Part shown: positions 18,967 to 63,086 of the stretch, piece after piece
Numbering within the stretch: the stretch's first letter is position 1
How the letters are laid out: the number at the start of each line of letters is the position of its first letter
Source of the DNA: a virus
IMG/VR virus record: IMGVR_UViG_3300044971_004534
Strand: one strand, 5' to 3'
Length of the DNA: 64,000 bases
Program-made: the position numbers and the translations under genes
Notes under the pieces: model-generated
What the model saw: only the letters and a program-made list of their open reading frames with translations
The model's database searches: none
Told to the model about the DNA's origin: nothing

Positions 18967-18970
18967 TTCC

Positions 18971-23505: not shown

Positions 23506-23538
23506 CTTAGTCTCATAATAAAAGTGGACAGAATGGAC

Positions 23539-23567
23539 TTGACACTCCATTGAACCAACGCTATACT
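23539..23567 (+). promoter_or_regulatory. sigma70-type promoter TTGACA-N17-TATACT
   Basis: TTGACA 23539-23544, TATACT 23562-23567; AAAGGAG before ATG 23619. Confidence 0.6.
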
Positions 23568-23618
23568 ATGTATGTCTGAGTTTTATTCTTCATTTACCTT
23601 TTACAAAAGGAGTTCAAC

Positions 23619-23909: not shown

Positions 23910-23947
23910 AGGACTTTTCCCAGTTCCATAGAAATATGGGCTGTGAA

Positions 23948-24302: not shown

Positions 24303-24311
24303 TTCAGCAAG

Positions 24312-24345
24312 CCCTCGTTCAGAGAAATCTGGGCGAGGGATTTTC
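24312..24345 (+). terminator. rho-independent terminator after tmRNA
   Basis: CCCTCG ... CGAGGG stem followed by ATTTT. Confidence 0.5.
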
Positions 24346-24368
24346 TACTAAATACAGAAAGGGATTCA

Positions 24369-24611
24369 ATGGAAATGGTTTACGGGATCGGTATCGCTAT
24401 TTGCTCTGTGGCTTCCGCTTACTTTGGCTGGAAGTTCGGTTACGCTCAGGGAAACAAAGACGGACACAAAACCGGGTACGATCATGGGGTGACTGCTGCC
24501 ATTCACGCTAACAAAAACGCTATTTTCCGTCAGAGTAAGCCAAGGCTTATGTATGGCGCAAAAAAGATCGTGAATGAAAAAAGCAAGCAAGAAGAAGTCT
24601 GGATTGGTTGA
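24369..24611 (+). CDS. small membrane protein
   Basis: ORF track; N-terminal helix VYGIGIAICSVASAYFGW. Confidence 0.55.
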   Translation: MEMVYGIGIAICSVASAYFGWKFGYAQGNKDGHKTGYDHGVTAAIHANKNAIFRQSKPRLMYGAKKIVNEKSKQEEVWIG

Positions 24612-24651
24612 GATTCCGTATCACTTCTCTATCTGTTGGATATTACTAGGT

Positions 24652-24725
24652 GGGAGATTAGCTCAGCGGTCAAGAGCAGGCGACTCATAATCGCTTGGTC
24701 GTGGGTTCGAACCCCACATCTCCCA
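24652..24725 (+). tRNA. tRNA-Met(CAU) elongator or tRNA-Ile2(CAU, lysidine type)
   Basis: Acceptor GGGAGAT/ATCTCCC, anticodon loop CTCATAA, T-arm GTGGGTTCGAACCCCAC; lacks initiator GGG/CCC anticodon stem. Confidence 0.85.
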
Positions 24726-24799
24726 TTATGCCTAGACGGATAAAGCTTTTACCGTGGCGTATGCCTAGTCACTTTTACGAATATCAAGGAGAAGAAAAA

Positions 24800-25132
24800 A
24801 TGAACGAAAGAAACAAGACCTCTGTGATCCTTTTCAGCATCGGTGCAGGAATGCTGTTTGGTTCTGCTGCCACCATGAGTGCGCCGCAGTATTCCATGTA
24901 TTTTCTGTTTGGTTCGCAGTTCTTCATCATTGCTGGTGCAATCGCCAGTTCCGCTCACTTCACTCGTCGTTTTGATGAGATGAATGTTGAAACTGACAAC
25001 AATCGGCGTGATATGTACAATCACGTTAGTTCCGTTGAAGACAGCATCCAGAGAGATGTTGATGGAGTGCGCCGTGAACTGGCTCAGGTTGAGAGTCGCA
25101 TCTGCACGAACAAACAGAAAGACGCTCGCTGA
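24800..25132 (+). CDS. membrane protein
   Basis: ATG 24800 after CAAGGAGAAG; two helices (VILFSIGAGMLFGSAA, FLFGSQFFIIAGAIA); ORF-track 24695 start would overlap the tRNA. Confidence 0.6.
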   Translation: MNERNKTSVILFSIGAGMLFGSAATMSAPQYSMYFLFGSQFFIIAGAIASSAHFTRRFDEMNVETDNNRRDMYNHVSSVEDSIQRDVDGVRRELAQVESRICTNKQKDAR

Positions 25133-25449
25133 TGTCGCGCCGCCCAAGTAACTCCAAAGGTGGTCTTGACCGCCTTGCGGTTTTGAACGGAGATAGTGCA
25201 GGACAGTATGTTCGCGTTTGCGAAGATGCCGTCAGCACCGTTGAGTTCAAGCCAGGTGTCTACGCTCGCTCAGTCAACGACAACGGATGGGCTTGCCCCC
25301 GTGGTCTTGAGGAAGTGAAGACGCAGGGACTCATCAAGAGCGCTGCGTGGGCGATTCGGGCAATCAAGAGGCGCGCTGAGTCTGGCGATGCTGAAGCGCA
25401 GATCATCATTCAGAACTTGAACGAGATTATCGGACAAGCTTCTGCGTAA
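25132..25449 (+). CDS. hypothetical protein
   Basis: ORF track; TGATG overlap with previous gene. Confidence 0.6.
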   Translation: MSRRPSNSKGGLDRLAVLNGDSAGQYVRVCEDAVSTVEFKPGVYARSVNDNGWACPRGLEEVKTQGLIKSAAWAIRAIKRRAESGDAEAQIIIQNLNEIIGQASA

Positions 25450-25472
25450 GAGCCAAGGAGAGAGGGATGGGG

Positions 25473-25509
25473 TAGCCCCGATTGTCGGAGATCGGGGCTA
25501 TCTTTTTTT
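25473..25509 (+). terminator. rho-independent terminator
   Basis: TAGCCCCGAT / ATCGGGGCTA 10-bp stem followed by TCTTTTTTT. Confidence 0.8.
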
Positions 25510-25573
25510 AATCTACGATGGTCAACTTTCTTGGGAAAAATGGAGAGATTTCGTACCAAGAAGAATGTAGACT

Positions 25574-25582
25574 TGTATACTA
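25574..25582 (+). promoter_or_regulatory. possible extended -10 (TGTATACTA), leaderless
   Basis: -10-like element ends 6-7 nt before ATG 25589; weak -35. Confidence 0.3.
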
Positions 25583-25588
25583 ATAGAC

Positions 25589-25855
25589 ATGGAGCGCAAT
25601 CCTCTATACAGTAAGAGTCGAAAGACAAGCCGTATCATCAATCAGGTTGATAATACGCCGTCTTTGCCTCAGCCAATCCTCAGTCCGATGGTGCGAGTTG
25701 GACTGTACAACTTGGTAACTGGAAGGAATGCGAGTCCTGTTGCGGGTAGCGGTGCTTCATTGAACCAGTATTATGATTCTTTGGACGCTCAGGGTATTGC
25801 GTATCCTGAGTTCGGACCCAATCTTGTGAAACTCAATAAGCCCCCGGAAGGGTGA
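25589..25855 (+). CDS. hypothetical protein
   Basis: ORF track; followed by a strong hairpin. Confidence 0.45.
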   Translation: MERNPLYSKSRKTSRIINQVDNTPSLPQPILSPMVRVGLYNLVTGRNASPVAGSGASLNQYYDSLDAQGIAYPEFGPNLVKLNKPPEG

Positions 25856-25889
25856 GGGGTTGAGGGTTCGCCCTCCCCCTCACCTTTTT
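25851..25889 (+). terminator. rho-independent terminator fused to cassette copy 6
   Basis: GGTGAGGGG / CCCCTCACC 9-bp stem followed by TTTTT. Confidence 0.7.
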
Positions 25890-25923
25890 CTCTTTTTCCC
25901 CCACGATGGGGAAGGTTGTGGCA
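25890..25923 (+). promoter_or_regulatory. conserved intergenic cassette copy 6
   Basis: core 25890-25902; TTG +14..16; A 25923 at +21; 13-nt leader with AAGGA to ATG 25936. Confidence 0.55.
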
Positions 25924-25935
25924 GCAAGGACGATC

Positions 25936-26853
25936 ATGCCCATCCGACACCTCGGTTATGCCTGTCAGAATATGACCCTCGGGGAGACTAAGCCAGTCTC
26001 CAAGCGTGTCTTTACGGACAGAACGCTTCGGATGGACGGGTTTAGTCTGCGGCGAGTAAATGAACTTGCCCTGTCGAACTCCCGTGATCTGCTCAAGATC
26101 ATGTGGTGGAATGTTGAAAATAAAATCAACTTCTTCCGCATTGGTTCAGGGATGTTTCCGTTCATGGATCATCCCGAACTGAAGTACGGTCTTGATGACC
26201 TCGCTACTGCGTTCACGATCAAGGGCGTGTTTCAGAATGTCGGCAACCTTGCCCGTGAGCATGGTATCCGGCTGTCAATGCACCCCGGTCCATACACCTG
26301 TCTTGCATCCCCTGATGAGGCAGTTGTCGCTAAGTCCTTGCTGTGCGTGGAGATGCACTCAATGGTTGGCGATCTTCTTGGAATGGATGACTTCCCAATC
26401 AACATCCACATTGGTGGTGTGTATGACGGCAAGGAAGGGTGTGCAGAGCGGTTTGTCCACAACTTCTCCCGACTTTCTCCACGCGCTCAATCAAGGCTGA
26501 CGCTTGAAAACGATGACAAGGAGGGAATGTGGACGATTCGTGACCTTCTTCCGGTGCATGAAAAGACAGGTATTCCACTTGTTCTTGACATTCATCACCA
26601 CTCGCTCAACACAGGTGGAGATGAACTGACAGCCGTAGCAGACATCGCTCTTTCCACTTGGAACGGAAAAACTCCAAAAGTTCATTATAGTGAACCTAAA
26701 GAGGGTTGCCGTCCCCAAGCACATTCCGACTACATCGTGAATGAGATTCCCGAACTTTGTCCAGTCAGACAATACGATGTGATGATTGAGGCAAAGGCAA
26801 AGGAACTCGCTCTCCTCAAATACAGAAACCTCTTTTTCCCCCTCTCTCGGTGA
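25936..26853 (+). CDS. uvdE: UV damage endonuclease UvdE
   Basis: RHLGYACQN..., FFRIGSGMFPF, RLSMHPGPY, HIGGVY, RLTLENDD, LVLDIHHH, VMIEAKAKE are the UvdE TIM-barrel signature; start set by cassette geometry and SD. Confidence 0.9.
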   Translation: MPIRHLGYACQNMTLGETKPVSKRVFTDRTLRMDGFSLRRVNELALSNSRDLLKIMWWNVENKINFFRIGSGMFPFMDHPELKYGLDDLATAFTIKGVFQNVGNLAREHGIRLSMHPGPYTCLASPDEAVVAKSLLCVEMHSMVGDLLGMDDFPINIHIGGVYDGKEGCAERFVHNFSRLSPRAQSRLTLENDDKEGMWTIRDLLPVHEKTGIPLVLDIHHHSLNTGGDELTAVADIALSTWNGKTPKVHYSEPKEGCRPQAHSDYIVNEIPELCPVRQYDVMIEAKAKELALLKYRNLFFPLSR

Positions 26854-26863
26854 ACTTACGATA
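26830..26863 (+). promoter_or_regulatory. conserved intergenic cassette copy 7 (leaderless class)
   Basis: core 26830-26842 inside the uvdE 3' end; TTA +14..16; ATG 26863 at +21. Confidence 0.55.
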
Positions 26864-27975
26864 TGCCCGCACGCATCTACGACAATCTCTCTGTTGATTC
26901 GGTCAGCGTCAGCAACTCTCACTCTGCTGCCCTTATTGGTGACAGCATCCTTGGGTGGGGTAGCCGCGCCAAGAGCAAGTTGGACTTCCCGGTTGGCAAG
27001 TTCGTGAGCGCAGCCTGTGGCTTCTCTCACTCTGCCGCCGTTGACTCCAACGGCAGTCTTTTCACCATTGGCAACGCGCTTGGTGGCAAGTTGAACAGCG
27101 GCAATCTGAACAGTCGTGGCAAGTTCAAGACCGTTCGCTGCTCTCGCAACTACACCGCTGCGACCATTGAGTACGGTGACGGAAAGCATCGGATTGCCGT
27201 GTTTGGCGATCAGAAGCCGTACAGCGTTCTCCCGTCCACGATTTACTCCAAGACGGCTAAGGATGAAGGTGTGTTCACCTTTGACTCCAACATCGGAGAC
27301 TTTGACATTGATGACAACGGGACTCTCGTTGTTGATGATCTCAAGGGTTCGATCTCCGTCATTCGTGGCAGCATTTGCAGCCTGAGCGGACTTCCCGGTA
27401 AAGTTACCAAGGTTCGTTGCGGCGACCCCAACACCACGACCATTGCAATCGCCCATGTGAATGACAGGGCATATCTGCTCACCCGCACCCACACGGGAAC
27501 TCAGCAGATTGCGGAGATTGCGGGTGATGTCACCGATGTGATCTGTGCAAACAAGTTCTATGGATATGTTGTTTCCAAGCGTGAACTCGTTGTCGTTGGA
27601 GAGCATTTCGGAAACATTCGCCTTCCCGATGGTTGGTCGATTGAGAGCGCCGATGGCGGCAATAATGGTTATGCAATCTGTGTGAGCGACAATGAAGGCA
27701 GTCGCCATCTTGTCCTTGTTGGAGACAACACCAAGAACAAGGAACTTGTGATCGAAGGTCACGATCATCGTGAATGCCCCCGCAAGGACGGCATGATCTA
27801 TGAGATTCGTGAGGACAAGACCGCCAAGGCGAAGCCGATTGTCGTTGCCGCTGTCAGCGCGATCACCGATGATTGCGATGATTCCGACTACGAGTGTGAG
27901 CCGTGCAAGTTCCGCTTTGTCGCAAAGTCCCCTGTTTGCCCGATGTGTAAGGGCGAGGTGGCGGTCAATGTTTGA
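26863..27975 (+). CDS. RCC1-like beta-propeller repeat protein with C-terminal Zn-ribbon
   Basis: HSAALIGDSILGWGS, SHSAAVDSNGSLFTIGN repeats; C-terminal CEPC...CPMC; repeat assignment is weak. Confidence 0.55.
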   Translation: MPARIYDNLSVDSVSVSNSHSAALIGDSILGWGSRAKSKLDFPVGKFVSAACGFSHSAAVDSNGSLFTIGNALGGKLNSGNLNSRGKFKTVRCSRNYTAATIEYGDGKHRIAVFGDQKPYSVLPSTIYSKTAKDEGVFTFDSNIGDFDIDDNGTLVVDDLKGSISVIRGSICSLSGLPGKVTKVRCGDPNTTTIAIAHVNDRAYLLTRTHTGTQQIAEIAGDVTDVICANKFYGYVVSKRELVVVGEHFGNIRLPDGWSIESADGGNNGYAICVSDNEGSRHLVLVGDNTKNKELVIEGHDHRECPRKDGMIYEIREDKTAKAKPIVVAAVSAITDDCDDSDYECEPCKFRFVAKSPVCPMCKGEVAVNV

Positions 27976-28096
27976 ACGCAAGTGGTATTCCAACATTGAA
28001 CCGATCATGGATTGGTGGATCAGCAATACTCCAAAGTGGATGCAGCCTCATTTTGTTTGGACTGCCTACTTTTTTGCCATCGACCGATTTCCTTGA
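27968..28096 (+). CDS. small hypothetical protein (42 aa)
   Basis: ATG 27968 overlaps previous stop; frame of ORF-track 27800..28096; Trp-rich. Confidence 0.3.
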   Translation: MFERKWYSNIEPIMDWWISNTPKWMQPHFVWTAYFFAIDRFP

Positions 28097-28113
28097 ACCG
28101 ATAAATCGTTGAA

Positions 28114-28197
28114 GGCTCTGTGGCGGAACTGGCAGACGCAGCGGACTCAAAATCCGCCGCCGTAAAAAGCGTGTGGGTTCGACCCCCACCGGAGCCA
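28114..28197 (+). tRNA. tRNA-Leu(CAA)
   Basis: Acceptor GGCTCTG/CGGAGCC, anticodon stem GCGGA/TCCGC, loop CTCAAAA, long variable arm, T-arm GTGGGTTCGACCCCCAC. Confidence 0.85.
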
Positions 28198-28200
28198 TTC

Positions 28201-28285
28201 GGGACTGTGGCGGAATCGGCATACGCAGCAGACTTAAAATCTGCCGACCTCAAAAGTCTTGTGGGTTCAAGTCCCACCAGTCCCA
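28201..28285 (+). tRNA. tRNA-Leu(UAA)
   Basis: Acceptor GGGACTG/CAGTCCC, anticodon stem GCAGA/TCTGC, loop CTTAAAA, long variable arm, T-arm GTGGGTTCAAGTCCCAC. Confidence 0.9.
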
Positions 28286-28319
28286 CTCTTTTTCCCCCTC
28301 TCCCGGTAGGATTGCGGCA
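28286..28319 (+). promoter_or_regulatory. conserved intergenic cassette copy 8 (leaderless class)
   Basis: core 28286-28298 abuts tRNA-Leu 3' end; TTG +14..16; ATG 28319 at +21. Confidence 0.55.
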
Positions 28320-29029
28320 TGACCAAGGTTTTGGACAACGCATCCGTAGTGAAGGCTTACCGATCACTCCTCAAGGAGTCAAAGGATTGGGGGCATCGTT
28401 TCTCAACTCCCGCCGTTCGTGGCGTACTGAATCGACTTTTTGGTCTTGATGCACTGAGGCTTGATTATTCCAACGAGGAATATGCACTTGCCTTGATTCG
28501 CAGCGATCCCAACTCAATCTCTTGCATTCCTGAGCAAGTTTGGGAAAAGATCAAGGATGACGCAGACAACATCCTCACGCTTCAGCGTGTGGGTGGAGCG
28601 ATGCCTCACAACACGGAGGGTATTCAGTTTTGCCTTGTTGTTGACGAAGGATGGGAGTTGCTTGGGTGGCAACCTCTTGCCTTGATTCTCGCTGCCGGGG
28701 CAATCAAGATGGACATTTACACCATCGGCTCAGGCATTGATGGTGATGATTCCATTGACATCACCTTCTTCAAGGATGTGAACAAGCCGATTGATCTTGA
28801 CTACGAGACTTGGACTTGGGACATCAATGATTGGCTCATCAACTCGTATGCGTACAGGAATGTGGCAATCACCATCCATGTTGACATTCTCAAGTTGAAT
28901 GTCACCTGCGAGGGAGAGATGGCAGTTCGCAGAAGTTTCGCGGAAAAAATGAGTATTTCCAACAAGAACAATCTTGTTCAGTCAGTTGATGACATCTTGG
29001 TGTCAGTTGGCAAAAAACTGACTACTTGA
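28319..29029 (+). CDS. hypothetical protein
   Basis: ORF track. Confidence 0.6.
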   Translation: MTKVLDNASVVKAYRSLLKESKDWGHRFSTPAVRGVLNRLFGLDALRLDYSNEEYALALIRSDPNSISCIPEQVWEKIKDDADNILTLQRVGGAMPHNTEGIQFCLVVDEGWELLGWQPLALILAAGAIKMDIYTIGSGIDGDDSIDITFFKDVNKPIDLDYETWTWDINDWLINSYAYRNVAITIHVDILKLNVTCEGEMAVRRSFAEKMSISNKNNLVQSVDDILVSVGKKLTT

Positions 29030-29034
29030 CCCTT

Positions 29035-29068
29035 CTCGTTTTCCCCCTCTAGCCGTGGGTTTGAGGTA
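29035..29068 (+). promoter_or_regulatory. conserved intergenic cassette copy 9 (leaderless class)
   Basis: core 29035-29047; TTG +14..16; ATG 29068 at +21. Confidence 0.55.
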
Positions 29069-30270
29069 TGAGCATCAAGGTCGATTCTTTCTTCAGCGGA
29101 CACAGCGCCGCCGCATTCACCCTGAGTGATGGCAGCATTCGCATGGTCGGAGAAGCGGGTCGTGAGGGAGCCTTTGGCTTCTACTCCAAGGGGTGTCACT
29201 CGTACACGAAGATTTCTCCCAACGGAGTGATTGTCGGCAGCATCAGCAACAAGTATTTCCACGCTCCTCCTCAGCACATCGGTCACATCGTGAAGTGCGT
29301 GACCATGTGGGGAATGACTTTCGCCATTGATAACACGGGCAGACTGTACGCTTGGGGTACATTCAAGAAGCGTCAATGGGACTCTATCCCATTTGACCGT
29401 ACTTTCAAGAACATCATGTGCGTTGGATGGGGGACCATTCTCTTTACTCAAACGGATGGAACGAGCGTTCCCATGTTCTTGCGTGAAGAAGGTCCGTCAA
29501 CGACCATGTTCTTCCAACACGCTAAGTCATTTCCTGCAATCAAGTCTGCTGCGATTGCGCGAGACAGCGGGTACATGATGGGTGAAGATGGCAGTCTCCT
29601 TTACTATTGGGACAAGAACGGTTCAGATAGCGACAAGAGTTGTGACTGGAAGTGCAAGACCGTAAGTGATTGCATTTGGGCTTCATTCAGCGATGGAAGC
29701 CTGATCTATAGGGACGGAAGGGGTGTGCATATTGCCATGAGGGGCAACAACAAGTGGAGTACCTCCATGAGTATCGCTGCCGTTGAGGACAAGGAAAGCC
29801 CTATTCATCGTGCAGTTGCATCAGCGGATCATTTCACTAACGACAATCAGGCATTCTTGCTTGACGATAACTCCATTCTGCGTTGCATCAACGGCAGATT
29901 CCGTGGAGACAAGTGCGAAGGCAGCATCACTCCTGTGTTTGAGGATGGAGTGAAGCAGTTTGACTGCAACTTTGTCCTTACGAACAAAGGTGTAATCATC
30001 CCGATTTCTGATGAGGCTTGGAGTCGTACTGACATGGTTCTGTCAGCCTTTGACGAATGGGCTGATGACGAGGACATCGTGTACGGAATGTGCAAGATTG
30101 CCCCTCGCAACTTCCTGTGTGCCTCTAATCGTCTACGCAAGGATGTTGACTTCTGCAAGAAGATTGCACAACTTGGACCCCATGCGTATCAGTACATTGA
30201 TGGCATGGTCAGAAGGAATCGTGAACTGCGTCCATACAAGCATATGTATGCGATGGCAGGAGATCGGTAG
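29068..30270 (+). CDS. RCC1-like beta-propeller repeat protein
   Basis: GHSAAAFTLSDGSIRMVGE, TFAIDNTGRLYAWGTF repeats; weak. Confidence 0.55.
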   Translation: MSIKVDSFFSGHSAAAFTLSDGSIRMVGEAGREGAFGFYSKGCHSYTKISPNGVIVGSISNKYFHAPPQHIGHIVKCVTMWGMTFAIDNTGRLYAWGTFKKRQWDSIPFDRTFKNIMCVGWGTILFTQTDGTSVPMFLREEGPSTTMFFQHAKSFPAIKSAAIARDSGYMMGEDGSLLYYWDKNGSDSDKSCDWKCKTVSDCIWASFSDGSLIYRDGRGVHIAMRGNNKWSTSMSIAAVEDKESPIHRAVASADHFTNDNQAFLLDDNSILRCINGRFRGDKCEGSITPVFEDGVKQFDCNFVLTNKGVIIPISDEAWSRTDMVLSAFDEWADDEDIVYGMCKIAPRNFLCASNRLRKDVDFCKKIAQLGPHAYQYIDGMVRRNRELRPYKHMYAMAGDR

Positions 30271-30273
30271 ACC

Positions 30274-30307
30274 CTCGTTTTCCCCCACCGCACCGGAACT
30301 TACGACA
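30274..30307 (+). promoter_or_regulatory. conserved intergenic cassette copy 10 (leaderless class)
   Basis: core 30274-30286; TTA +14..16; ATG 30307 at +21. Confidence 0.55.
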
Positions 30308-30726
30308 TGAGCCACCCTTACTACCACGCCAAGAGTTCCGCCAAGAAGTTTGGTGGTCAGCCGGAAGATTACATCGCTCTACATGAATGGTTCGATCAGA
30401 CGAAGGCTCATCTTCCCGATGCGCGTCACCGCTCTGTTCTCCATTCGTCTTTCGGCATCTACATGGCGCAGCAAGTCTTTGGTGAGGTGATCGTTCGCAA
30501 GTCAGACGGCAAGCCTGTCCCCACCCGAATGCTTGGCGAACAGCACGTTCTTGAGGACATGGGTATGATTCCCACGCTTCAAGATTGGCTCAAGGAACTC
30601 CCCCTGCGTTCGTGGATGATCCGTGGCGCAAAGGCTTTGAGCAAGGAGCAAGACTCTGCTGAAGGCGGTATGTGTGAGCCGAATCAGCACGAAGTTATTG
30701 GACAGCCTGTGACTACAGAAAGTTGA
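30307..30726 (+). CDS. hypothetical protein
   Basis: ORF track; HAKSSAKKFGGQPEDYIALHEWFDQTK N-terminus recalls a widespread phage family I cannot name. Confidence 0.65.
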   Translation: MSHPYYHAKSSAKKFGGQPEDYIALHEWFDQTKAHLPDARHRSVLHSSFGIYMAQQVFGEVIVRKSDGKPVPTRMLGEQHVLEDMGMIPTLQDWLKELPLRSWMIRGAKALSKEQDSAEGGMCEPNQHEVIGQPVTTES

Positions 30727-30782
30727 CCTAAAAGTTGATATCCCGTATCAGATGAGTTTTGAAAGGGATATCAATAGGTAAC

Positions 30783-30855
30783 GAGACTGTAGCTCAGTTG
30801 GTAGAGCAATCGGCTTTTAACCGATTGGTCATGGGTTCAAGTCCCATCAGTCTCA
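30783..30855 (+). tRNA. tRNA-Lys(UUU)
   Basis: Acceptor GAGACTG/CAGTCTC, anticodon stem ATCGG/CCGAT, loop CTTTTAA, T-arm ATGGGTTCAAGTCCCAT. Confidence 0.9.
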
Positions 30856-51601: not shown

Positions 51602-53059
51602 ATGAAAATACTACTCGCAATTTTAGTAAGTGCTCTTATCGTAAACGGTTCTGAATTTAAGAAAAATACAACAAACAAGAACGTCGTAACCGCCACGGAA
51701 ACCCAGGTGAATACGGCGTTTGTCGGTTTTAATGACGGCGTTTCTCTGGAGGACAAACAGAGGACTATTGCATCTCTTGGGAACATGATTGAGTCTGCAC
51801 ATTATTATGAAAATATCCCCAATTTGGCACTTGTCGTTGTTTCGAGTAACTTTATAACTAACATAGCAGACGTGTCAAGTGCACTTGAAGGAAATGAGAC
51901 TGTTTCATTCTTTGAAATGGACAGAAGATTTACCGCAACATACAGCGAAGTGATTCCAAACGATGCCGGATTCTCACAATGCTGGGGTCACAGAAATACC
52001 GGAGCTTCTGGTGGACTGGTAAACTTTGATATGAATACAACAAATGCATGGTCTATTACTCAAGGACAGCCAACGGTAAAAATACTTGTCTTTGAGACAG
52101 GAATACAGCAAGATCATCCAGATATAAATCAACTGCCAGGAAGAGACTTCACAACAGGTGCAGTGAACGGAGTAAGCGGCGGTGGACCAAGCAACTCTTG
52201 TGACAATCACGGGACTGCCGTTGCAGGATGCATTACAGGCATTATCAACAATTCAATAGGAACCGTGGGAACTGCACCAAATTGCAAAGTCATTTCCGCA
52301 AAAGTTGGCACAGCAATCACTCCATGCAATGGGTCGTGGCAGGGGCAAACATCATGGACTGTAAATGCTATTAACTGGGCAATCGGCAATGGAGTAAGGG
52401 TAACAAACAACAGCAATGATTACGGCACAGCTTCTACGGCAATGTCAAATGCATATTCTGCCGCAAAAAATGCTGGAATAGTTAATTTTGCAAGTTCTGG
52501 AAATTCTGGAAACACTTCTATTGGTTTCCCAGCAAGTGCTTCTGCGGTGAACGCAGTTGGTGCAAGCAGCAGAAACGGACAGAAAGCTTCTTTTTCGTCA
52601 TACGGCACAAAGCTCGCTTTTGTTGCTGCTGGCCAATCGGTTTACACCACAGACAGGACGGGATCAAATGGATACTCTTCAGGTGACTATTCACTTATTG
52701 ACGGAACTTCTTTTTCTTCCCCATATGCCGCTGGTGTCGCAGCACTTATCATTTCAGTGAACCCATCACTTTCTGCAGCACAGGTTGAGTCCATTATGCA
52801 AACAACATGCAAGGACATGGGAGCAGTAGGATTTGACACTCTTACTGGATGGGGAATGCTGAATGCAGAAGCTGCCGTGCTTCTTGCTCGCCCTGTTCCA
52901 TGCCCAGCAGATTTAAATGGAGACAGGTCTGTCAATGGAAGCGATCTTGGTCAATTGTTGTCTTCATGGGGTTCATCTGGATCTGACCTTACTGGAGATT
53001 CAGTCGTCAATGGCGAAGATTTAGGCGTTCTTCTTTCTGCATGGGGGCCTTGTCCGTAA
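51602..53059 (+). CDS. secreted subtilisin-like (S8) serine protease with C-terminal dockerin-like repeats
   Basis: Signal peptide MKILLAILVSALIVNG; catalytic D (VFETGIQQDHPD), H (NHGTAVAG), S (GTSFSSPYAAG); tail DLNGDRSVNGSDLGQLLSSWG / DLTGDSVVNGEDLGVLLSAWG. Confidence 0.9.
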   Translation: MKILLAILVSALIVNGSEFKKNTTNKNVVTATETQVNTAFVGFNDGVSLEDKQRTIASLGNMIESAHYYENIPNLALVVVSSNFITNIADVSSALEGNETVSFFEMDRRFTATYSEVIPNDAGFSQCWGHRNTGASGGLVNFDMNTTNAWSITQGQPTVKILVFETGIQQDHPDINQLPGRDFTTGAVNGVSGGGPSNSCDNHGTAVAGCITGIINNSIGTVGTAPNCKVISAKVGTAITPCNGSWQGQTSWTVNAINWAIGNGVRVTNNSNDYGTASTAMSNAYSAAKNAGIVNFASSGNSGNTSIGFPASASAVNAVGASSRNGQKASFSSYGTKLAFVAAGQSVYTTDRTGSNGYSSGDYSLIDGTSFSSPYAAGVAALIISVNPSLSAAQVESIMQTTCKDMGAVGFDTLTGWGMLNAEAAVLLARPVPCPADLNGDRSVNGSDLGQLLSSWGSSGSDLTGDSVVNGEDLGVLLSAWGPCP

Positions 53060-53587: not shown

Positions 53588-53640
53588 CGCGTTGCAGGTA
53601 ATCATCTGTTAGCGTTGAATATATTTCAATGGAGAATTAT

Positions 53641-54096
53641 ATGCAATATAAATTATCAAAGTCAGAGTGGGAATCTATAGGCGTCAATGCTGGGTGGATG
53701 AAAATTGCTGGACCTGGCGGAAGATTTCAGGCTTCCATGAGTGCAGCAGAGCAAAAGTTGTGGGCAAGCCTAAATCAGCAACAAAAAAATAATTATGCAA
53801 CATTGGATGCTGCCAATAGAGCAAGGGTTGCAGCACTGCCATTGCAGCAAGCACAACAATACCTGAACAGCATAATGCCACCAGCTGGAGGTAAAGTCCC
53901 AACAGCTTCATTTGATAATGAAATAAAGACGGCTCTTAAATTAAATGACAAAACTGATGAAAAAACACCAGAGCAGTATAAGGAAGAGTTTATAGAAAGA
54001 ATGAAGTCCATCGGGATGACAGATGAAGAAATCGAGCGTGCACTAAAATCTGGATATTTAGAAAGAATCATGAAAGGCAGAAAGAATAAAGAATGA
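53641..54096 (+). CDS. QYKLSK-domain protein (module 3, gene A)
   Basis: MQYKLSKSEWESIGVNAGWMKIAG; ATG 53641 6 nt after GGAG (ORF track lists 53629). Confidence 0.65.
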   Translation: MQYKLSKSEWESIGVNAGWMKIAGPGGRFQASMSAAEQKLWASLNQQQKNNYATLDAANRARVAALPLQQAQQYLNSIMPPAGGKVPTASFDNEIKTALKLNDKTDEKTPEQYKEEFIERMKSIGMTDEEIERALKSGYLERIMKGRKNKE

Positions 54097-55689: not shown

Positions 55690-56328
55690 TTATTTACGCT
55701 TACGTTGACTAAAGCTGCAAAGACCTGCAATACCAATAAGAGATACTGCTCCTGGTGCAGGAATTGCGTTTACTCCAAAGCCACAGTAGTCAATAAAGTT
55801 TCCCTGAGTAGATCCGCCTGTGGCGCTAACTGCCTGAAATGCGAATCTTGTCAGATTTCCTATACTAACTATAGATCCTGAATGAAATTGCCAAGCAGTT
55901 TCATCTGCAGTAAAGTTGCCCTGATACAGAACAGTGTCATCTCCGTTGCCATACAGCTGATCTGCGCCAAGATCAATTATTGAAAGCTGCATGACATCAA
56001 CTCCGTATCTGCCTCTGTGAGCAAAATGCCAATTAATTGTATTGAAATCTCCTAAGCCATTGACGTGCTGATACAAAGTAGAATCGTAGTTTGCATTGAG
56101 TTCAGCGAATGAACTTCCCTCATATGCAGGCACTCCAAGAAATCCATCTGACCAAATCTCCAAATTGTTGTCTGGTGCTGTGGTTGCCCAGTTCAAAGTT
56201 GGGTCAGAACCAGAAAAGAAACCATAACCCCAGGTCTGAAAATCTTCAAAACCACCGTTTACAAGATCTGCCATACAACTTGTAGAAATAACTAAAGTAG
56301 ACAAAAATGCACAAGCGTATTTAACCAT
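55690..56328 (-). CDS. secreted PEP-CTERM protein with DUF642-like domain
   Basis: Signal peptide, then DLVNGGFE; C-terminus IPAPGAVSLIGIAGLCSFSQRKRK (PEP-CTERM variant: PxPG, helix, basic cluster); SD AAGGAGGG. Confidence 0.75.
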   Translation of the reverse strand: MVKYACAFLSTLVISTSCMADLVNGGFEDFQTWGYGFFSGSDPTLNWATTAPDNNLEIWSDGFLGVPAYEGSSFAELNANYDSTLYQHVNGLGDFNTINWHFAHRGRYGVDVMQLSIIDLGADQLYGNGDDTVLYQGNFTADETAWQFHSGSIVSIGNLTRFAFQAVSATGGSTQGNFIDYCGFGVNAIPAPGAVSLIGIAGLCSFSQRKRK

Positions 56329-56369: not shown

Positions 56370-57164
56370 TTATATTCTTTTACGATTATGAAAAAATTGA
56401 CTAAAAGCAACTACAGTAAAAGCTCCAGGTGATGGAACGGACGGTGGCACATAGTATCCACCAGTGTCTATACCATAGTACTCTCCAAATCCATAGTTAG
56501 TTCCAAGAGCAAGTGTAGTGCTATAGACATCAAATGGCAGCAAACTAGGAGTAAAAAAGGCTGCGTATGGATCTGCAAATCCTGTTTGAGCTGCCAAAGA
56601 GGTAACCGGGGCTAAATTAATATCTGTCGCCAAAGCTGCCTGCACAATTTGCTTTGTCAATTTATTTTGCTCATTAGTAACAACAAGTGGAGCTTCAACT
56701 GGCTTATCTCCACCAATTTTATTTTCTTTGGGAAATCTAGCAAGTTCATCTGAGATCTGATAGCCACGAGTCTGTTCTTTGTTGTCAATTTTGAATGGTT
56801 TCTGCCAGTGCCCTTGATAAGGTTGGCCAAACAAAGCGGAATTTGACTGCTTATTACTATTATTGTCTTTTTGTTCTTGATTTTTTGGAGCGTCTGCTTT
56901 CCCAATATCAGAAGCTGCAGTTATGGCAGAATTCATGCCATTAATCGCTGACATAAGAGACTGTACTCCACGTTCACCAAGCAATGTGATTGCAGAAGTA
57001 CATACGATGGTCATAACGTAAACTTTTTTCTCTAAGCTTTTAACCTTAGATTTTGCTTCTTCACACATTCTGGCACATGAAGAGCATCCCCCAGAAATGC
57101 TCTCAACATGCGAGTGTGAAACTGGCGTAGGCGCAGGCTGCTGAATGTCTTTTTTAATCCCCAT
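56370..57164 (-). CDS. PEP-CTERM-like membrane/secreted protein
   Basis: C-terminus VPSPGAFTVVAFSQFFHNRKRI; internal helix VYVMTIVCTSAITLL. Confidence 0.55.
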   Translation of the reverse strand: MGIKKDIQQPAPTPVSHSHVESISGGCSSCARMCEEAKSKVKSLEKKVYVMTIVCTSAITLLGERGVQSLMSAINGMNSAITAASDIGKADAPKNQEQKDNNSNKQSNSALFGQPYQGHWQKPFKIDNKEQTRGYQISDELARFPKENKIGGDKPVEAPLVVTNEQNKLTKQIVQAALATDINLAPVTSLAAQTGFADPYAAFFTPSLLPFDVYSTTLALGTNYGFGEYYGIDTGGYYVPPSVPSPGAFTVVAFSQFFHNRKRI

Positions 57165-57304: not shown

Positions 57305-60004
57305 ATGTATTTAAAGTATTTTATGAATATAGAAAAAACTGCACAACTTAATTGGTTTCGAGGAATAAGGGATCGCATTCGTGGCAACAAGCCAGATGAA
57401 AGCGGTCAAGAATTGTCATTTAATGAACAAGAACTGCGTGGGCTTGAAGAAATAGAAAGAAGAAAGACTGAAGAAGAAAGAAAAAGAGTTGATAAGCTGG
57501 TCCAAGAATCAAAAGAAAGAGCTGAAAGCTTTGGTAGACCTGACAATATTCCCGGAAAATTTGAATTAAGTAGATCTAGTATTCAAAATATATTGTCTAT
57601 GGACAGAGATACTTTATGGCATAAGCTTTGTGCATCTTTTGAGAATTGTTCTCCTTATGTTTCTGAAACTACGGCACAAAGGGGAAGAATAATAAGATAT
57701 CTTGTAGACACTAGGCAAGGCGATTATCGAGGTGGCTGGGGAAGTGTGCTTAGGAGCATAGATTTTCTACTGCAAGGATTAGAATTAGATATACGTAATG
57801 CAGGCAATAATAGTAAAGCGGCAATATCTCATAATAATATGCAAGAAATTTTTACCAATAGAGATTGGCTCATGGCAAATAAAGATGGAATTCAACGAGC
57901 CTATGCACAAGCATCTCCAGACTCTATTAATAAAGAAGTTTTAAATAAATTTTTAACAAATAAACAATCGTATTATGCTCGACGTGATGCAGCTATAGAA
58001 GTATGGGCATCATTTTTAAAAAATAAATATCAATATTACTATGGAAATACATTAAGTGATCAGTATTTTTATAATATTCATCTGTATGCGGATAGGTTAT
58101 GGGAAGATTTTAAATTATATTTTCGATTGATGTCAGGTAATCTATTCCACAACATAGGCATTCAATTAGGTAAAAAATACTTACCAGAAGATATGCAATC
58201 AATTTCTGATGGTGTTCATGCAATAGATGTAAGTATGTTCGACATAGCAAAGCCAGCTAATTTAATGCAATCACGCAGTAATGCAAGGGGTGAAAATGAT
58301 ATCTTTTATAATTGGACCGTGAATAAATGGAAAGAATTTGTAGAAGATACACATTTAATGCTAAGCGTCTTTGGATTTAATTTAAAAGGTGTGTCAAATA
58401 TTAATAATATAAATGGAGAAAATTTATATTACAATATGATGCAAAAAATAATTATGATAGAAAATATTGTTAATAGAGATCCTTTTATAAGTCATATTTT
58501 TAATAACAGTAGATTAGATTTAGGAGATAGCTATTATATATATGCACAAATTAAAGACAAAATGAGTGCTGATCATAATCCAAATAGAGAAGAATATTTA
58601 GTTTCTATATTAAATCAAATTTATGTTAATCAGCATGGAGGGTACTCAAGAGCAATATCTGAAGCTTCAGATGAAAGTTTGAGATCGGCGGCAGATAGGG
58701 TGCCATTTGCAGTAGAACATATTTTATTGCATTTAGAATTTGGTGAAAATATGTATAATGTTATTAATAATTTTGACCAATATCAATCTGCTCTAAATTC
58801 ATACAGAGAAAAACAGCATTCAGCATTAAAAAAAGTAAGAAACGTTCTAGCCAATCCTGATTTAACACAGATGTCTCCCGAAGAGGCAAGACAGTATTTT
58901 GTAGAAAAACTTAATAGACTAGCGAATAGGGAGTTTGAAGGTAGCAATATCGAAAAGGCAAAGCAAGAGCAAATTCTTGATTCTCCATTTGAGCACACAT
59001 CAGTGATAAGACCGTCTACCTTTCCTGGTCAAGCAGCATTTAATAGCAACTCCTTGCCTGAATTGCAAGGAACTCCAATTTCTTTTAATATAGCAATTTA
59101 TCCAAAAAAGAAAGAAAATGACCCGGAAAACTTTGCACAAGTTCTTGCTCCAGGTGGGCACGCACAAGATGGACTAAACTTTCATCATCAGAATATTCCG
59201 TCATTAGAAAATAAGAAATATTATAGTCATATACTTGGCTGGATAGGTGGATGGGTTGACGTAGTAGGCTCGAACATGTATATAGCAGAAATTCAAAGCG
59301 ACGTTATGCAACATACGTCTTACATGAAAGATCCAGAAAAGTCAAAAACAAAATTGAACGAAGAACTTAAAAAGCAAATGCAAGAATTGCAAAAAGAAAA
59401 AGACAATCTTGCTAAACAATCTACAGAAGGTATAGAAAAATTCTATGATAAAAGAATTGAAGAGTTAGAAAAAAAGAGAGATAGCGCAAATAATGAGGCA
59501 ATGAAGCAGCAAATGGATACTGCAATAAAAAAATTAACAGAACAAAAAAACGCTAAAGAAGATCCGTGGGTTAAACTAAGAAAAAAAATAAAAGACATAG
59601 AAAATGTTATTGTTGAAATTAAAAATCAAATTCAAGAGCTTATTGATTATGAAAGAAACACTAACGATCAATGGAGAAAAAGGCCGCAGTTTGCTGATGT
59701 AAAGTCAAAAATAGAAAATAGATTTTCTGAATATGTCGATGTTTTTTATAATGAAGCAATTTACTATTGTGCTCAACTCAAAATTAAAGGTTTATGGATA
59801 GTGCATTCAGATCTTTTAGCTGCAGTCTGGCGACATTTTGCAACGGCTGATACCGTAGAAATGTATAAGAAAATATACGACAAACGAGCGATGGAGATGG
59901 GAGCAGAAAAGAAGGGCAACTGGTGGCACTTAGATCTTACCAAGAAAATGCCTAAGTATGCAAGCACAAATTGGTATCAAAGGACTAAAAATGGGATGGT
60001 ATAA
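57305..60004 (+). CDS. large hypothetical protein (899 aa), paralog 1
   Basis: ORF track (alt. start ATG 57323, MNIEKTAQLNWFRG); C-terminal ~350 aa colinear with the next gene incl. IAEIQSDVMQ and ENRF motifs; ends STNWYQRTKNGMV. Confidence 0.7.
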   Translation: MYLKYFMNIEKTAQLNWFRGIRDRIRGNKPDESGQELSFNEQELRGLEEIERRKTEEERKRVDKLVQESKERAESFGRPDNIPGKFELSRSSIQNILSMDRDTLWHKLCASFENCSPYVSETTAQRGRIIRYLVDTRQGDYRGGWGSVLRSIDFLLQGLELDIRNAGNNSKAAISHNNMQEIFTNRDWLMANKDGIQRAYAQASPDSINKEVLNKFLTNKQSYYARRDAAIEVWASFLKNKYQYYYGNTLSDQYFYNIHLYADRLWEDFKLYFRLMSGNLFHNIGIQLGKKYLPEDMQSISDGVHAIDVSMFDIAKPANLMQSRSNARGENDIFYNWTVNKWKEFVEDTHLMLSVFGFNLKGVSNINNINGENLYYNMMQKIIMIENIVNRDPFISHIFNNSRLDLGDSYYIYAQIKDKMSADHNPNREEYLVSILNQIYVNQHGGYSRAISEASDESLRSAADRVPFAVEHILLHLEFGENMYNVINNFDQYQSALNSYREKQHSALKKVRNVLANPDLTQMSPEEARQYFVEKLNRLANREFEGSNIEKAKQEQILDSPFEHTSVIRPSTFPGQAAFNSNSLPELQGTPISFNIAIYPKKKENDPENFAQVLAPGGHAQDGLNFHHQNIPSLENKKYYSHILGWIGGWVDVVGSNMYIAEIQSDVMQHTSYMKDPEKSKTKLNEELKKQMQELQKEKDNLAKQSTEGIEKFYDKRIEELEKKRDSANNEAMKQQMDTAIKKLTEQKNAKEDPWVKLRKKIKDIENVIVEIKNQIQELIDYERNTNDQWRKRPQFADVKSKIENRFSEYVDVFYNEAIYYCAQLKIKGLWIVHSDLLAAVWRHFATADTVEMYKKIYDKRAMEMGAEKKGNWWHLDLTKKMPKYASTNWYQRTKNGMV

Positions 60005-63000
60005 GTTTGCACAACTTCATGCAATGAAGTGCTCTCCAGTAAACTTGAAAAAGTTACTGCAATTTGCACACACTCCAGGACAGGCTTATTTGTTCGAGAT
60101 GGGCGAAGAACATTCTGCTATGCAAAAACACATAGAAAGACTTGGCGGAAAAAGATATAAAATTCAATTTTTACTCAACACGTTTGATGCAATGCTTACC
60201 GATCTAGATAACACAAAATTAGATTTTGAAGTAGATCAAGATAGGATTGCAAATCGCATAGATTCCGACTATGTAGAAGAATCATATGGTTATATTTTTG
60301 ATGAAGATGACACTAAGTTTTGGGAAAACATAGATGGCATAAATGATCAAGTTTTAGAATTTATTGAAGAATCTTGGGATGTTTCTGAAGATGACTTTGA
60401 GAGTCGCTTATTTCATTATCCAGTAAGTAGTCGTGAACCAAATAATTCAAAAGAACTCGTTAGTCTCAAAGACATTTCAGAAGAACTGTCTAGTTTTGCG
60501 TATTTTGGAGATATGATTTCTTGCATAGGCAATTTGAAACATGATAAATATGTAGCTCGTGATATCATGAGAGAAATAGCGGATATAGATATTGATTTAA
60601 GGTCAATGGGAGAATCAGCAACCGGCATTCATGTTCATACGTGGGCTAAAAATAAAGGCATTGATCTGACGCTTGCTGTGGTTCAAAAAGCAGCAGGTGG
60701 AGAACAAAATGTTGAGATCGCAAAATACGATCCAGATTCAGCAAAACAAATAGCACAAAAAGCTTACTCTAATGTTGCAAATTCTTGGGTTGACAGTATA
60801 GAAAAATTACCACATTCTAAAACAGATTTAGAAGAAGCAATTGAAGAAGCATTCAGAGATCAGGTAAAAGAATCATGGTGGGAGTCTAACAAACAACGCT
60901 TTATGGAAGATGCAGTTGATAATGAAATTGAAAGTACTGCGGATTCATTTAATTATGATGATAGAAGATGGGCTAAAAACACATTGCCCGCAGAATCAGT
61001 AGACCCAAACGTCAGACATCATGTAAGTAAAACTTTTACGGAAGCATTAAAGGAGCACAGCTGGCTAGATAGAGACGAAGATTCTGGTCATGTACAGGTT
61101 GAAGCTAGTAGCTATTTTGCAAACTTAGGAGTTAAAGATTGGAGTAAAATAGCGGATGATATACAGGAAATGGCGGATGACCACGCAATGACTGGTTACG
61201 AAGATTATGTAAAAGAAATAAGATCATATACATCTATGATTAATTGGATTGTAGCAAGTGATCCAGACTTGTCTGCAATCTTTTCTGATGAAGACGCAGA
61301 CCCGACAACACTTACGCAGACTGCTACGGATTTGGGGCAAATAGTTAAAACTTCATATGAGGTTATATCTCTTATGCCTCAGGACGATGCAAGACGCATG
61401 GAGCAAAGCATAACTGCAGAAAATCCAGAGATTGAAGACTGGATTAAAGCCTTAAGAGAAAGAGAAGAAGTAGAAAGACAGGCGAGAGAAACTCAAGCTG
61501 CCATGCTTGCGGAAGAAGAGGCAAGAAAAGCTATACAAAGATCAAATAGAGAAAGAATTGAAAAAGAAGTTTCTGAAGAGTCTAAAAAAATTAATGATCC
61601 AAATATCGGCTCAAGGTCTTTCACAGAAGAGCAAAAGCAGCAGGCAAAAACTCAAAACATTATTGGTAAACCATTTGAGCACATGTCAACATTGCGGGTT
61701 GATCAAAAATACCCTGGAGTGAGCGCCTTTGTGTTAAAGCCAGTACCTATGGAAAGTGAAGTTCCTTATAAGACTTTCCATATTGCTATATATCCAAAAA
61801 AGGAGCAAAGCGATCCGACAAGACTGCATGATGTCTTTGATAGAAGTGCGGGTTTAAATTTTCATGGATTTAGTTTTCCTGAACATGTGAATGAAAATTA
61901 TTACGATCTTATTGGATGGGTTGGCGGCACTATTGACCTTTATAATAAGATAATGTACGTCACAGAAATACAAAGTGATGTAATGCAAAATACCCCTCGC
62001 ATGAAAGATGTTTCCAAGAGCATTGTTGCTTTGAACGAGGGAAAAAATAGCTTATTAGCTGAAGCTGAAAAAATAAAAACATATATTACCACAAATGATA
62101 TCAATGCATATTATGACAAGAGAATACAAGATTTAAAATTAAAAATTCAATCCATGAGTGACAGTCCTGCTGCAATGCAAATGCAGCAAGCTGTTTTAAA
62201 ATTAGAAGAGTTAAAGAATAAGGGTGTAGACCCTTTTGAAAAAGAAAGACAAAAACTACACGATATTGACAATAAACTTAAAGAGATTAATAGGCAAATA
62301 AATGATATAGAAGAATTTGATAAGAAACCTTCTGCCAAACTAAATAAACCTCATCTTTCAGAATTAAGATCTCGAATAGAAAATAGATTTACTGATTGGG
62401 TAGATACCTTCTATAATGAAATATTTATGTATTGTTCTCGCTTAGGAATAAAACATTTATATATAGCAGCTTCTTCTTATTTGTATCTAACATGGAGACA
62501 GTATGCCAAGGCATCTACACTAGAATTGTATAAAAAGATATATGATACAAAGGCTGAGAAGTACGGAATGCGTAAAGTACATTATAAGGGTGTCACGTAT
62601 TGGCATTTAGATCTATCAGAAAACATGCCAAAGTTTGCGAGCAAAGAAAGGTTACAAATGTCTAAAAATAATTGGTATAGGCAAATTAAAACTGCAATGG
62701 ATTTTAGCAGTATTTACATTGATGATATAAAAAGAAAATTTTCTAATGGAGAGATTACGGAAGAGCAAATGCAAGCGCAGATACGTGAAAGATATATGGA
62801 ACACACACAAGATCCAACTACTCGTGACCCAAAACTGTTTATTATAGAAGCAAAAACTTTCTTTGATACGATTAAGCATATTGAAGGCAGAGAAAGGGGT
62901 GGAGAAGATTCTGAGTTTTCAAAAGCTCAATTTATGAGGGAAGCATTGGGTCAGTTTTTAGAATTTAATGGTAAGAAATATACAGACAGAGACGGCAAGC

Positions 63001-63086
63001 TAGAAGAGCCATTTAAATCAATACTTCAAAGATTGCTTATACAGAAATTTAATTACGACATGGATTTAGATGAAATGGTAGAGTGA
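59991..63086 (+). CDS. large hypothetical protein (1031 aa), paralog 2
   Basis: ATG 59991 (MGWYKFAQL) in frame of ORF-track 59958..63086; VTEIQSDVMQ, ENRF, NNWYRQIK motifs. Confidence 0.7.
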   Translation: MGWYKFAQLHAMKCSPVNLKKLLQFAHTPGQAYLFEMGEEHSAMQKHIERLGGKRYKIQFLLNTFDAMLTDLDNTKLDFEVDQDRIANRIDSDYVEESYGYIFDEDDTKFWENIDGINDQVLEFIEESWDVSEDDFESRLFHYPVSSREPNNSKELVSLKDISEELSSFAYFGDMISCIGNLKHDKYVARDIMREIADIDIDLRSMGESATGIHVHTWAKNKGIDLTLAVVQKAAGGEQNVEIAKYDPDSAKQIAQKAYSNVANSWVDSIEKLPHSKTDLEEAIEEAFRDQVKESWWESNKQRFMEDAVDNEIESTADSFNYDDRRWAKNTLPAESVDPNVRHHVSKTFTEALKEHSWLDRDEDSGHVQVEASSYFANLGVKDWSKIADDIQEMADDHAMTGYEDYVKEIRSYTSMINWIVASDPDLSAIFSDEDADPTTLTQTATDLGQIVKTSYEVISLMPQDDARRMEQSITAENPEIEDWIKALREREEVERQARETQAAMLAEEEARKAIQRSNRERIEKEVSEESKKINDPNIGSRSFTEEQKQQAKTQNIIGKPFEHMSTLRVDQKYPGVSAFVLKPVPMESEVPYKTFHIAIYPKKEQSDPTRLHDVFDRSAGLNFHGFSFPEHVNENYYDLIGWVGGTIDLYNKIMYVTEIQSDVMQNTPRMKDVSKSIVALNEGKNSLLAEAEKIKTYITTNDINAYYDKRIQDLKLKIQSMSDSPAAMQMQQAVLKLEELKNKGVDPFEKERQKLHDIDNKLKEINRQINDIEEFDKKPSAKLNKPHLSELRSRIENRFTDWVDTFYNEIFMYCSRLGIKHLYIAASSYLYLTWRQYAKASTLELYKKIYDTKAEKYGMRKVHYKGVTYWHLDLSENMPKFASKERLQMSKNNWYRQIKTAMDFSSIYIDDIKRKFSNGEITEEQMQAQIRERYMEHTQDPTTRDPKLFIIEAKTFFDTIKHIEGRERGGEDSEFSKAQFMREALGQFLEFNGKKYTDRDGKLEEPFKSILQRLLIQKFNYDMDLDEMVE

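Follow-up and report, generated by a model that had tools for sequence, protein, structure and literature searches.

Two overlapping genes at positions 57305 to 63086 of a 64,000-nucleotide stretch of viral DNA (IMG/VR record IMGVR_UViG_3300044971_004534, hereafter the window) encode large proteins, ORF1 and ORF2, that share a conserved C-terminal module. The module is a previously unannotated domain that is rare and has been seen so far only on phage or phage-like contigs. Its core of about 190 residues most likely adopts, as judged from predicted structures, a divergent alpha/beta fold resembling that of the GNAT (acyl-CoA N-acyltransferase) enzymes. The best explanation of the whole, which we hold to be somewhat likelier right than wrong, is a divergent GNAT-like domain with an inserted helical arm, likely a group-transfer enzyme, with a suggested role at the phage-host interface.

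Two tandem proteins share a C-terminal module

BLASTP aligned residues 539 to 898 of ORF1 with residues 539 to 903 of ORF2 at 149/374 identities (40%, E 1e-76). A first-pass annotation, made from the sequence alone, had described the C-terminal ~350 residues of the two proteins as colinear. The alignment bears this out, and every shared motif that the annotation listed is visible in it. The similarity extends beyond low-complexity coiled coil. With SEG filtering on, three pieces of the module were each significant separately: the N-terminal half of the core (42% identity, E 1.5e-28), the helical insert (38% identity, E 6e-15), and the C-terminal half of the core (46% identity, E 1.7e-35). The N-terminal regions of about 545 amino acids (aa) gave a best E value of 0.11, in agreement with the earlier description of them as unrelated. 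The Lys/Glu-rich coiled-coil insert, put earlier at ~120 aa, measures 122 aa in ORF1 and 118 aa in ORF2. The two genes are laid out as follows.

57305-60004, + strand: ORF1, 899 aa; lineage-specific N-terminal region, then C-terminal module
57305-58939, + strand: ORF1 N-terminal region, residues 1-545, without known domain
58970-59320, + strand: ORF1 module, N-terminal half of core, residues 556-672
59288-59302, + strand: ORF1 EIQSD motif, E662-I-Q664-S665-D666; E, Q, S and D invariant across the family
59321-59686, + strand: ORF1 helical arm insert, residues 673-794, 122 aa; four helices predicted with a local distance difference score (pLDDT) above 90
59687-60001, + strand: ORF1 module, C-terminal half of core, residues 795-899
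59991-63086, + strand: ORF2, 1031 aa; an in-frame ATG upstream at 59958 would make 1042 aa
59991-61625, + strand: ORF2 N-terminal region, residues 1-545, without known domain
61656-61997, + strand: ORF2 module, N-terminal half of core, residues 556-669; EIQSD at 61965-61979 (residues 659-663)
61998-62351, + strand: ORF2 helical arm insert, residues 670-787, 118 aa
62352-62705, + strand: ORF2 module, C-terminal half of core, residues 788-905
62706-63083, + strand: ORF2 C-terminal tail domain, ~126 aa

The N-terminal half of the ORF1 core contains PFEH, the FNIAIYPKK strand, LNFH (with H627), GWIGG (G645, W646, and G649), and the MYIAEIQSDVMQ strand. In the model, EIQSD occupies the C-terminal end of strand two of the central hairpin. 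The C-terminal half contains the KSKIE804N805RF...FYN816 helix, the LWIV strand, the MYKKIY858D helix, the WWHLDL strand, and the MPKYAS-NWY tail.

A family with invariant polar residues and an arm of variable length

We built a family profile from the two window modules and searched it against 1.84 billion cluster representatives. The search returned 72 proteins at E<1e-3, 17 of them at E<1e-30. Most members are 800 to 1000 aa long and carry the module at or near the C terminus, and some are stand-alone forms of 213 to 450 aa. Ten positions are invariant (ORF1 numbering): G645, W646, G649, E662, Q664, S665, D666, Q669, E804, and Y858. N805, N816, and H627 are nearly invariant. The conserved positions can be summarized as GW.GG, E.QSD..Q, (KSK.)EN, N, and Y. 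EIQSD may have a catalytic role.

The insert site is fixed, directly after the strand ending in E-x-Q-S-D-x-x-Q and before the long K-S-K-x-E-N helix. The insert is 4 to 205 aa long across the family, with modes near 72, 92, and 120, and three members are almost or wholly arm-less: P0062 (213 aa, with an insert of 4 aa), P0071 (8 aa), and P0070 (21 aa). The earlier view, that a coiled coil interrupts a conserved core, was correct, because the Lys/Glu coiled coil is an insertion of variable length at this single site. The arm is only mildly positive in net charge (mean +2.5, with 78% of 72 inserts above zero) and offers no clear support for nucleic-acid binding.

Database scans placed the module in no known family. 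Pfam, PHROGs, and NCBIfam scans of ORF1 and ORF2 gave nothing significant. When 81 members were scanned with Pfam (41 at E<=0.1 and 40 more at E<=0.001) and 19 core sequences with PHROGs, nothing turned up beyond LRV/HEAT repeats, a single DUF4116, and coiled-coil noise. An hmmsearch of the family profile against PDB sequences found only coiled-coil proteins when the arm was included and nothing credible when it was spliced out; phmmer with the two N-terminal regions returned no PDB match. Neither megablast with the locus nor tblastn with three family members matched any of 50,697 GenBank phage records, so no cultured phage among them carries the family, and a scan of 185,579 species-representative genomes with two motif sets found no member. 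Scans of metagenome contigs with a narrow alignment yielded 15 loci. The first-pass suggestion of a novel family is thus upheld: the module is real, unannotated, and marked by invariant polar residues.

The core is predicted to have a GNAT-like fold

An AlphaFold2 model of the ORF1 module, made from a 15-sequence alignment (pLDDT 77), has a small alpha/beta core plus a confidently predicted four-helix arm. Foldseek with this model, one of the checks proposed in the first-pass annotation, was only partly informative. The results were dominated by SMC-type coiled coils, and the sole globular matches were p300/CBP histone acetyltransferase domains at E ~1-2. Because the search was swamped by these coiled coils, we modeled an arm-less member. 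The AlphaFold2 model of P0062, made from a 41-sequence family alignment, has a pLDDT of 84.9 and a predicted template modeling (TM) score of 0.84.

All 50 of the 50 best PDB matches of the P0062 model are GNAT-fold acyltransferases. The best are OrfE and nourseothricin acetyltransferase (7ypu/5c82), at E 8e-3 to 2e-2 and a Foldseek probability of 1.0, and the top 50 also include GCN5/PCAF, SpeG, AAC(6'), and p300. In BFVD, the model matched giant-virus GNATs (E 1e-3 to 1e-2) and large uncharacterized phage or viral proteins. The ORF1-module and P0062 models have the same strand and helix order. A GNAT-like core is the best reading because the matches from two independent models are uniform.

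In canonical GNATs, the P-loop Q/R-x-x-G-x-G/A between beta4 and alpha3 binds the pyrophosphate of coenzyme A (CoA) (PMC4964394). The equivalent segment of the module reads E-I-Q-S-D-V-M-Q, followed by the helical insert of 122 or 118 aa and then K-S-K-I-E-N. In the models, the arm thus sits at the place where canonical GNATs have the pyrophosphate-binding loop. Since Q-S-D-V-M-Q and the arm replace that loop, canonical acetyl-CoA binding is not expected.

Genomic context of family members

Some relatives lie among phage head genes. The gene order in locus L012 is a gp21-type prohead protease (S77), a protein with a restriction endonuclease (REase)-like and a Mom/GNAT domain, the gp23 capsid protein, a second Mom/GNAT protein, and a 1052-aa family member. 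In L013, a member adjoins the gp20 portal, an S77 protease, and a Mom/GNAT protein. L012 941-7722 and L013 5766-13217 are T4-like head clusters interleaved with Mom-family GNAT proteins, one of which has an MTES_1575 REase-like domain. The short member P0054 of L016 lies three genes downstream of a T4-type portal. An 82-aa PP-binding (acyl-carrier-protein-like) gene at L016 8765-9013 comes directly after the portal, three genes upstream of P0054.

In L009 and L010, a member is flanked by a ribonucleotide reductase gene and by a gene with weak terminase similarity. In L009, the large subunit of ribonucleotide reductase (4219-7914), two genes upstream of the member, contains an intein with a LAGLIDADG endonuclease domain. 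In L010, the N- and C-terminal halves of the core are in two adjacent ORFs (8513-10798 and 10883-11845), with the break within the arm. The gene may be truly split, or the break may be an artifact of assembly or of a frameshift.

Other relatives are giant proteins. The module ends a 1664-aa protein in L036 that also contains LRV repeats and a 2H phosphoesterase domain (2'-5' RNA ligase superfamily), and it lies inside a 1722-aa protein in L037. P0070 (1460 aa) has LRV/HEAT repeats by Pfam and MORN-like repeats by eye only. A motif, S-S-L-[RK]-[FL]-(S/A)-(W), recurs between the domains of these proteins: 5 copies against 0.05 expected in L036 (5636-10627), 3 against 0.04 in L037 (8711-13876), and 2 against 0.04 in P0070. 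The module's C-terminal MPK(Y/F)AS..NWY and the ORF2 N-terminal MGWYKFAQ resemble degenerate copies of it. Judged from its sequence, the recurring motif could be a cleavage or docking site.

Proposed activity and alternative explanations

We suggest that the module may be a group-transfer enzyme, of acyl or aminoacyl type, that uses the GNAT cleft. H627, E662, Q664, S665, D666, Q669, E804, N805, N816, and Y858 would line the donor/acceptor cleft, and the donor would be bound otherwise than acetyl-CoA is in canonical GNATs. Glu662, on the hairpin strand, is a candidate general base, and Tyr858, on the later helix, a candidate general acid. ORF1 and ORF2 would each present this same module on a different, lineage-specific N-terminal region, and those regions, together with the ORF2 tail, may supply targeting. 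The proteins might then be modifying effectors at the phage-host interface. The genomic contexts suggest phage-host conflict or head association. Taken with the replacement of an ORF1 allele described below, they suggest an effector that is carried in the virion or acts early.

Several observations weigh against this proposal. The structural matches are weak, with PDB E values of at least 8e-3, TM-scores of 0.25 to 0.45, and a root mean square deviation often above 6 A. The Pfam scans of the 81 members gave no GNAT match, nor did NCBIfam or PHROGs, and hmmsearch against PDB sequences linked the module to no GNAT family. When hhalign compared the family profile with the Mom-domain proteins of L012, the probability was 0.2%. 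The P-loop is absent, and no member has a Gly-rich loop there. The strand order is unlike that of a textbook GNAT, with a helix between the second and third strands and no clear alpha1-alpha2 pair, and the invariant residues are only presumed to cluster in a single cleft. As to context, the association with head clusters is real but not universal: it is found in only 2 to 3 lineages, and other members, including the window pair and P0062, lie among small accessory genes.

The module might instead be a non-catalytic part of an assembly, which we consider unlikely but worth weighing. It would then be a degenerate GNAT-like interaction domain whose coiled coil serves oligomerization or spacing, in an internal head protein, a scaffold-like protein, or an ejected protein, and the invariant residues would form a binding interface. 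The missing cofactor loop and the long coiled coil, which is typical of scaffolds, fit this idea, as do the members near portal, prohead protease, and capsid genes in L012, L013, and L016. The basic C-terminal tail, which is conserved (NWY..K), might act as a docking peptide. However, about ten invariant or near-invariant polar residues (E, Q, S, D, Q, E, N, N, Y, and H) persist at an otherwise 20 to 30% identity, a pattern that suits an active site better. Members can also do without the arm, since a 213-aa arm-less one stands alone among small accessory genes. Many loci have no structural genes nearby, and one member is fused to the 2H phosphoesterase domain in an effector-like giant protein.

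There is a similarly small chance that the module is a new fold or enzyme class that resembles GNATs only superficially in the 3Di alphabet of Foldseek. Any function of an acidic or polar cleft would then be conceivable, such as that of a hydrolase, a nucleotidyl transferase, or a ligand sensor. The low TM-scores and marginal E values are what this explanation would lead one to see, and the absent P-loop, the atypical strand and helix order, and the lack of a profile-level link to any family agree with it. However, chance 3Di matches would be heterogeneous, and every one of the 50 PDB matches is GNAT-fold. Moreover, two independently built models both indicate acetyltransferases.

Less probable still is that a GNAT-fold transferase takes its donor from a carrier, either aminoacyl-tRNA or acyl-carrier protein. 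By analogy with FemA and seryl-tRNA synthetase, the arm would be a carrier-binding arm, and the N-terminal regions would steer the same chemistry to different host or phage DNA or protein targets. A carrier-borne donor is suggested by the arm of FemA and by the use of aminoacyl-tRNA by Mom; the mean arm charge of +2.5 adds no support. If this were true, the family would be a new class of phage hypermodification or anti-defense enzymes.

A PD-(D/E)xK nuclease, which the first-pass annotation had raised, is very improbable. On this reading, a beta-hairpin would carry a BglII-like D...E-x-Q metal site made of D652 and E662-x-Q664; a helix and a fourth strand would come next, and the coiled coil would be inserted after the catalytic strand. 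The beta-beta-beta-alpha-beta order around the motif is compatible, and E-x-Q is invariant in the family at the site where these nucleases have (D/E)-x-K. E-x-Q in place of E-x-K is known in BglII, and Q replaces K in a few nucleases, so that the E-x-Q by itself argues neither way. However, the D-x9-EIQSD pattern, literally present in ORF1 (D652...E662-D666), breaks down in the wider family, where D652 is not conserved and short-type members have T/S/K-rich loops. We rejected the nuclease because of this unconserved Asp and because no nuclease is among the top 50 PDB or BFVD matches of either model; no Pfam nuclease family matched at E<0.1.

From the models, then, the module is likely a new, strongly divergent GNAT-like family that has lost the P-loop, gained a helical arm, and is enzymatic. 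If it is an enzyme, it would represent a phage-specific branch of the GNAT fold without the CoA-binding loop. Few GNAT enzymes use donors other than CoA, and those that do are of mechanistic interest; the glycyl-tRNA-dependent DNA modification by Mom was established only recently (PMC13219725). The family is a candidate for a new host-takeover, anti-defense, or nucleic-acid-modifying activity in huge phages because of its Mom-type and head-gene neighbors, the 2H phosphoesterase fusion, and the wholesale swap of a paralogue between near-identical genomes. The 213-aa arm-less P0062 offers an easy entry to biochemistry.

Paralogy, gene overlap, and replacement of an ORF1 allele

ORF1-type and ORF2-type proteins fall into separate lineages, and in related phages each lineage retains an N-terminal region of its own. 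The ORF1 region is kept only in ORF1-type orthologues (P0002-5, P0007, P0009, and L008_8351), and the ORF2 region is kept in ORF2-type orthologues (P0006, P0010-13, and L008_11100). Because both lineages recur with their own N-terminal regions, the duplication predates the split of these phages, and on sequence grounds we regard ORF1 and ORF2 as ancient paralogues kept in tandem. The notion of swappable N-terminal domains therefore needs qualification. It holds across the family, in which the module stands behind many different N-terminal regions, but the window pair represents two old paralogous lineages, each with its own. The ~126-aa tail of ORF2 is common to P0006, P0010-14, and P0080/81 and is a separate ORF in L008; judged by eye only, it is similar to the tail of short family members. 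In L017, an 868-aa gene and a 761-aa ORF2-type member lie in that order, ~730 nt apart.

Gene callers favor a Met7 start at 57323 for ORF1, which gives 893 aa. The overlap of 14 nt reported between the genes is confirmed with the ORF2 start at 59991. A ribosome-binding-site-like AAGGA (59980-59984) lies six bases 5' of this ATG, the same start is used by the ORF2 orthologues P0006 and L008_11100, and the syntenic pair in L008 (8351-11113 and 11100-13814) has an identical 14-nt overlap. This conservation suggests translational coupling of ORF1 and ORF2. Within 59980-60004, the reading frame of ORF2 is +1 with respect to that of ORF1, and the overlap has a run of five A's (ACT AAA AAT GGG ATG GTA TAA). 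Coupling is the simple reading of this sequence; a +1 slip that fuses both proteins is conceivable. A promoter and terminator scan gave counts equal to the shuffle expectation.

Locus L006 is 96 to 100% identical to the window on both flanks and through ORF2, but only 50 to 80% identical across ORF1. The N-terminal region of ORF1 is the most divergent part of this allele, and identity returns to 100% exactly at the ORF1/ORF2 junction. In L006, then, ORF1 by itself has been exchanged for another allele. The further divergent ORF1 alleles (P0003 and P0004) are in genomes that are equally divergent elsewhere, so there is one clear swap and no general hypermutation mechanism. A diversity-generating (mutational) origin of the ORF1 variability was rejected on these grounds, the L006 change being a whole-gene replacement with a sharp boundary. 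L006 has a second sharp patch of divergence, at window positions 53601-54000 (31 to 52% identity in an otherwise ~100% background), which covers the start of a 155-aa ORF at 53629-54096.

The window genome and neighboring genes

We read the window as part of an uncultured huge phage. The exact ORF1 protein was found on contigs of up to 406 kb, and there is a syntenic relative in IMG/VR. The window has seven scattered tRNA genes (Glu, Gly, Arg, Met, two Leu, and Lys, dispersed over 11527-30855) and a tmRNA gene (23948-24302, with the tag peptide ANESLMAVAA). It also encodes UvdE, DUF932, a MoxR-type AAA and VWA pair, RCC1 repeats, and many small ORFs. The GC content is 0.50 to 0.60 over 1 to 48 kb. 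It is 0.32 to 0.40 from about 54 kb, through the gene pair, and for at least 6.7 kb past the window end (L001 16679-22682), a strong shift in composition within a single phage genome.

Upstream of the pair, 51602-53059 encodes a 485-aa subtilase (Peptidase_S8, E 3e-39), a gene kept in the syntenic L006 and L008. The closest NCBIfam model is a type VII secretion mycosin, well under its cutoff, and the C terminus is weakly dockerin-like. Two genes on the minus strand, 55690-56328 and 56370-57164, immediately precede ORF1, are divergent from it, and end in PEP-CTERM-like sorting tails (...IPAPGAVSLIGIAGLCSFSQRKRK and ...VPSPGAFTVVAFSQFFHNRKRI). The product of 55690-56328 also has an N-terminal signal-like segment. 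An NCBIfam scan of these two genes gave no match. Phage-encoded substrates of the exosortase type, if that is what they are, would be unusual and would hint at the host.

Comparison with known systems

T4 Alt is an ADP-ribosyltransferase; like the internal head proteins, it is packaged in the capsid and ejected. The likeness to the present family is a functional analogy only: both are large enzyme-bearing or possibly enzyme-bearing proteins of T4-like phages, and some family members lie inside head-gene clusters. The module has no homology to Alt, and no capsid-targeting sequence was found here.

Polyvalent proteins of phages and conjugative elements are reported to contain GNAT and ART domains, according to Iyer et al. 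2017 as cited in PMC7824862. The resemblance noted in the first-pass annotation applies to some relatives, which are giant multi-domain proteins like the polyvalent ones discussed for jumbo phages (PMC7824862); the L036 relative is a 1664-aa protein with LRV repeats and a 2H phosphoesterase as well as the module. Unlike polyvalent proteins, the window ORFs have one recognizable module each, and no LPD Pfam family matches.

FemA has a GNAT domain with an inserted pair of long antiparallel helices (residues 246 to 307, between beta3 and beta4 of domain 2) (PMC4964394). A helical arm inserted in a GNAT domain is thus common to FemA and the module. However, FemA has two GNAT domains, compared with the single core of the module, and a shorter arm, and the insertion points may not be equivalent. 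Pfam gave no FemAB match for the module, and FemA/FemABX proteins were absent from the Foldseek lists of both models.

Mom of phage Mu (PF25680) has a GNAT fold and moves glycine from Gly-tRNA to adenine in DNA (PMC13219725). It is thus a phage enzyme of GNAT fold whose donor is not CoA. A jumbo phage often has several Mom-type proteins (PMC7824862), and Mom-domain proteins are immediate neighbors of members in L012 and L013. Unlike Mom, the module has no Pfam Mom match or hhalign signal, and its conserved motifs differ; Mom has no helical arm.

GNAT enzymes (such as the streptothricin/nourseothricin acetyltransferases 5c82 and 7ypu, GCN5, SpeG, and AAC(6')) are the best and only consistent structural matches of the arm-less member. 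Unlike them, the module has no sequence-level similarity to the GNAT families, Q-S-D-x-x-Q and an insert of 4 to 205 aa replace the pyrophosphate loop, and the core has additional strands at its N terminus and unusually placed helices. Common to both are a central beta-hairpin, then a long helix, and then a short parallel strand. The invariant Glu of the hairpin and the Tyr of the later helix recall, in their positions, the general base and general acid of GNAT enzymes.

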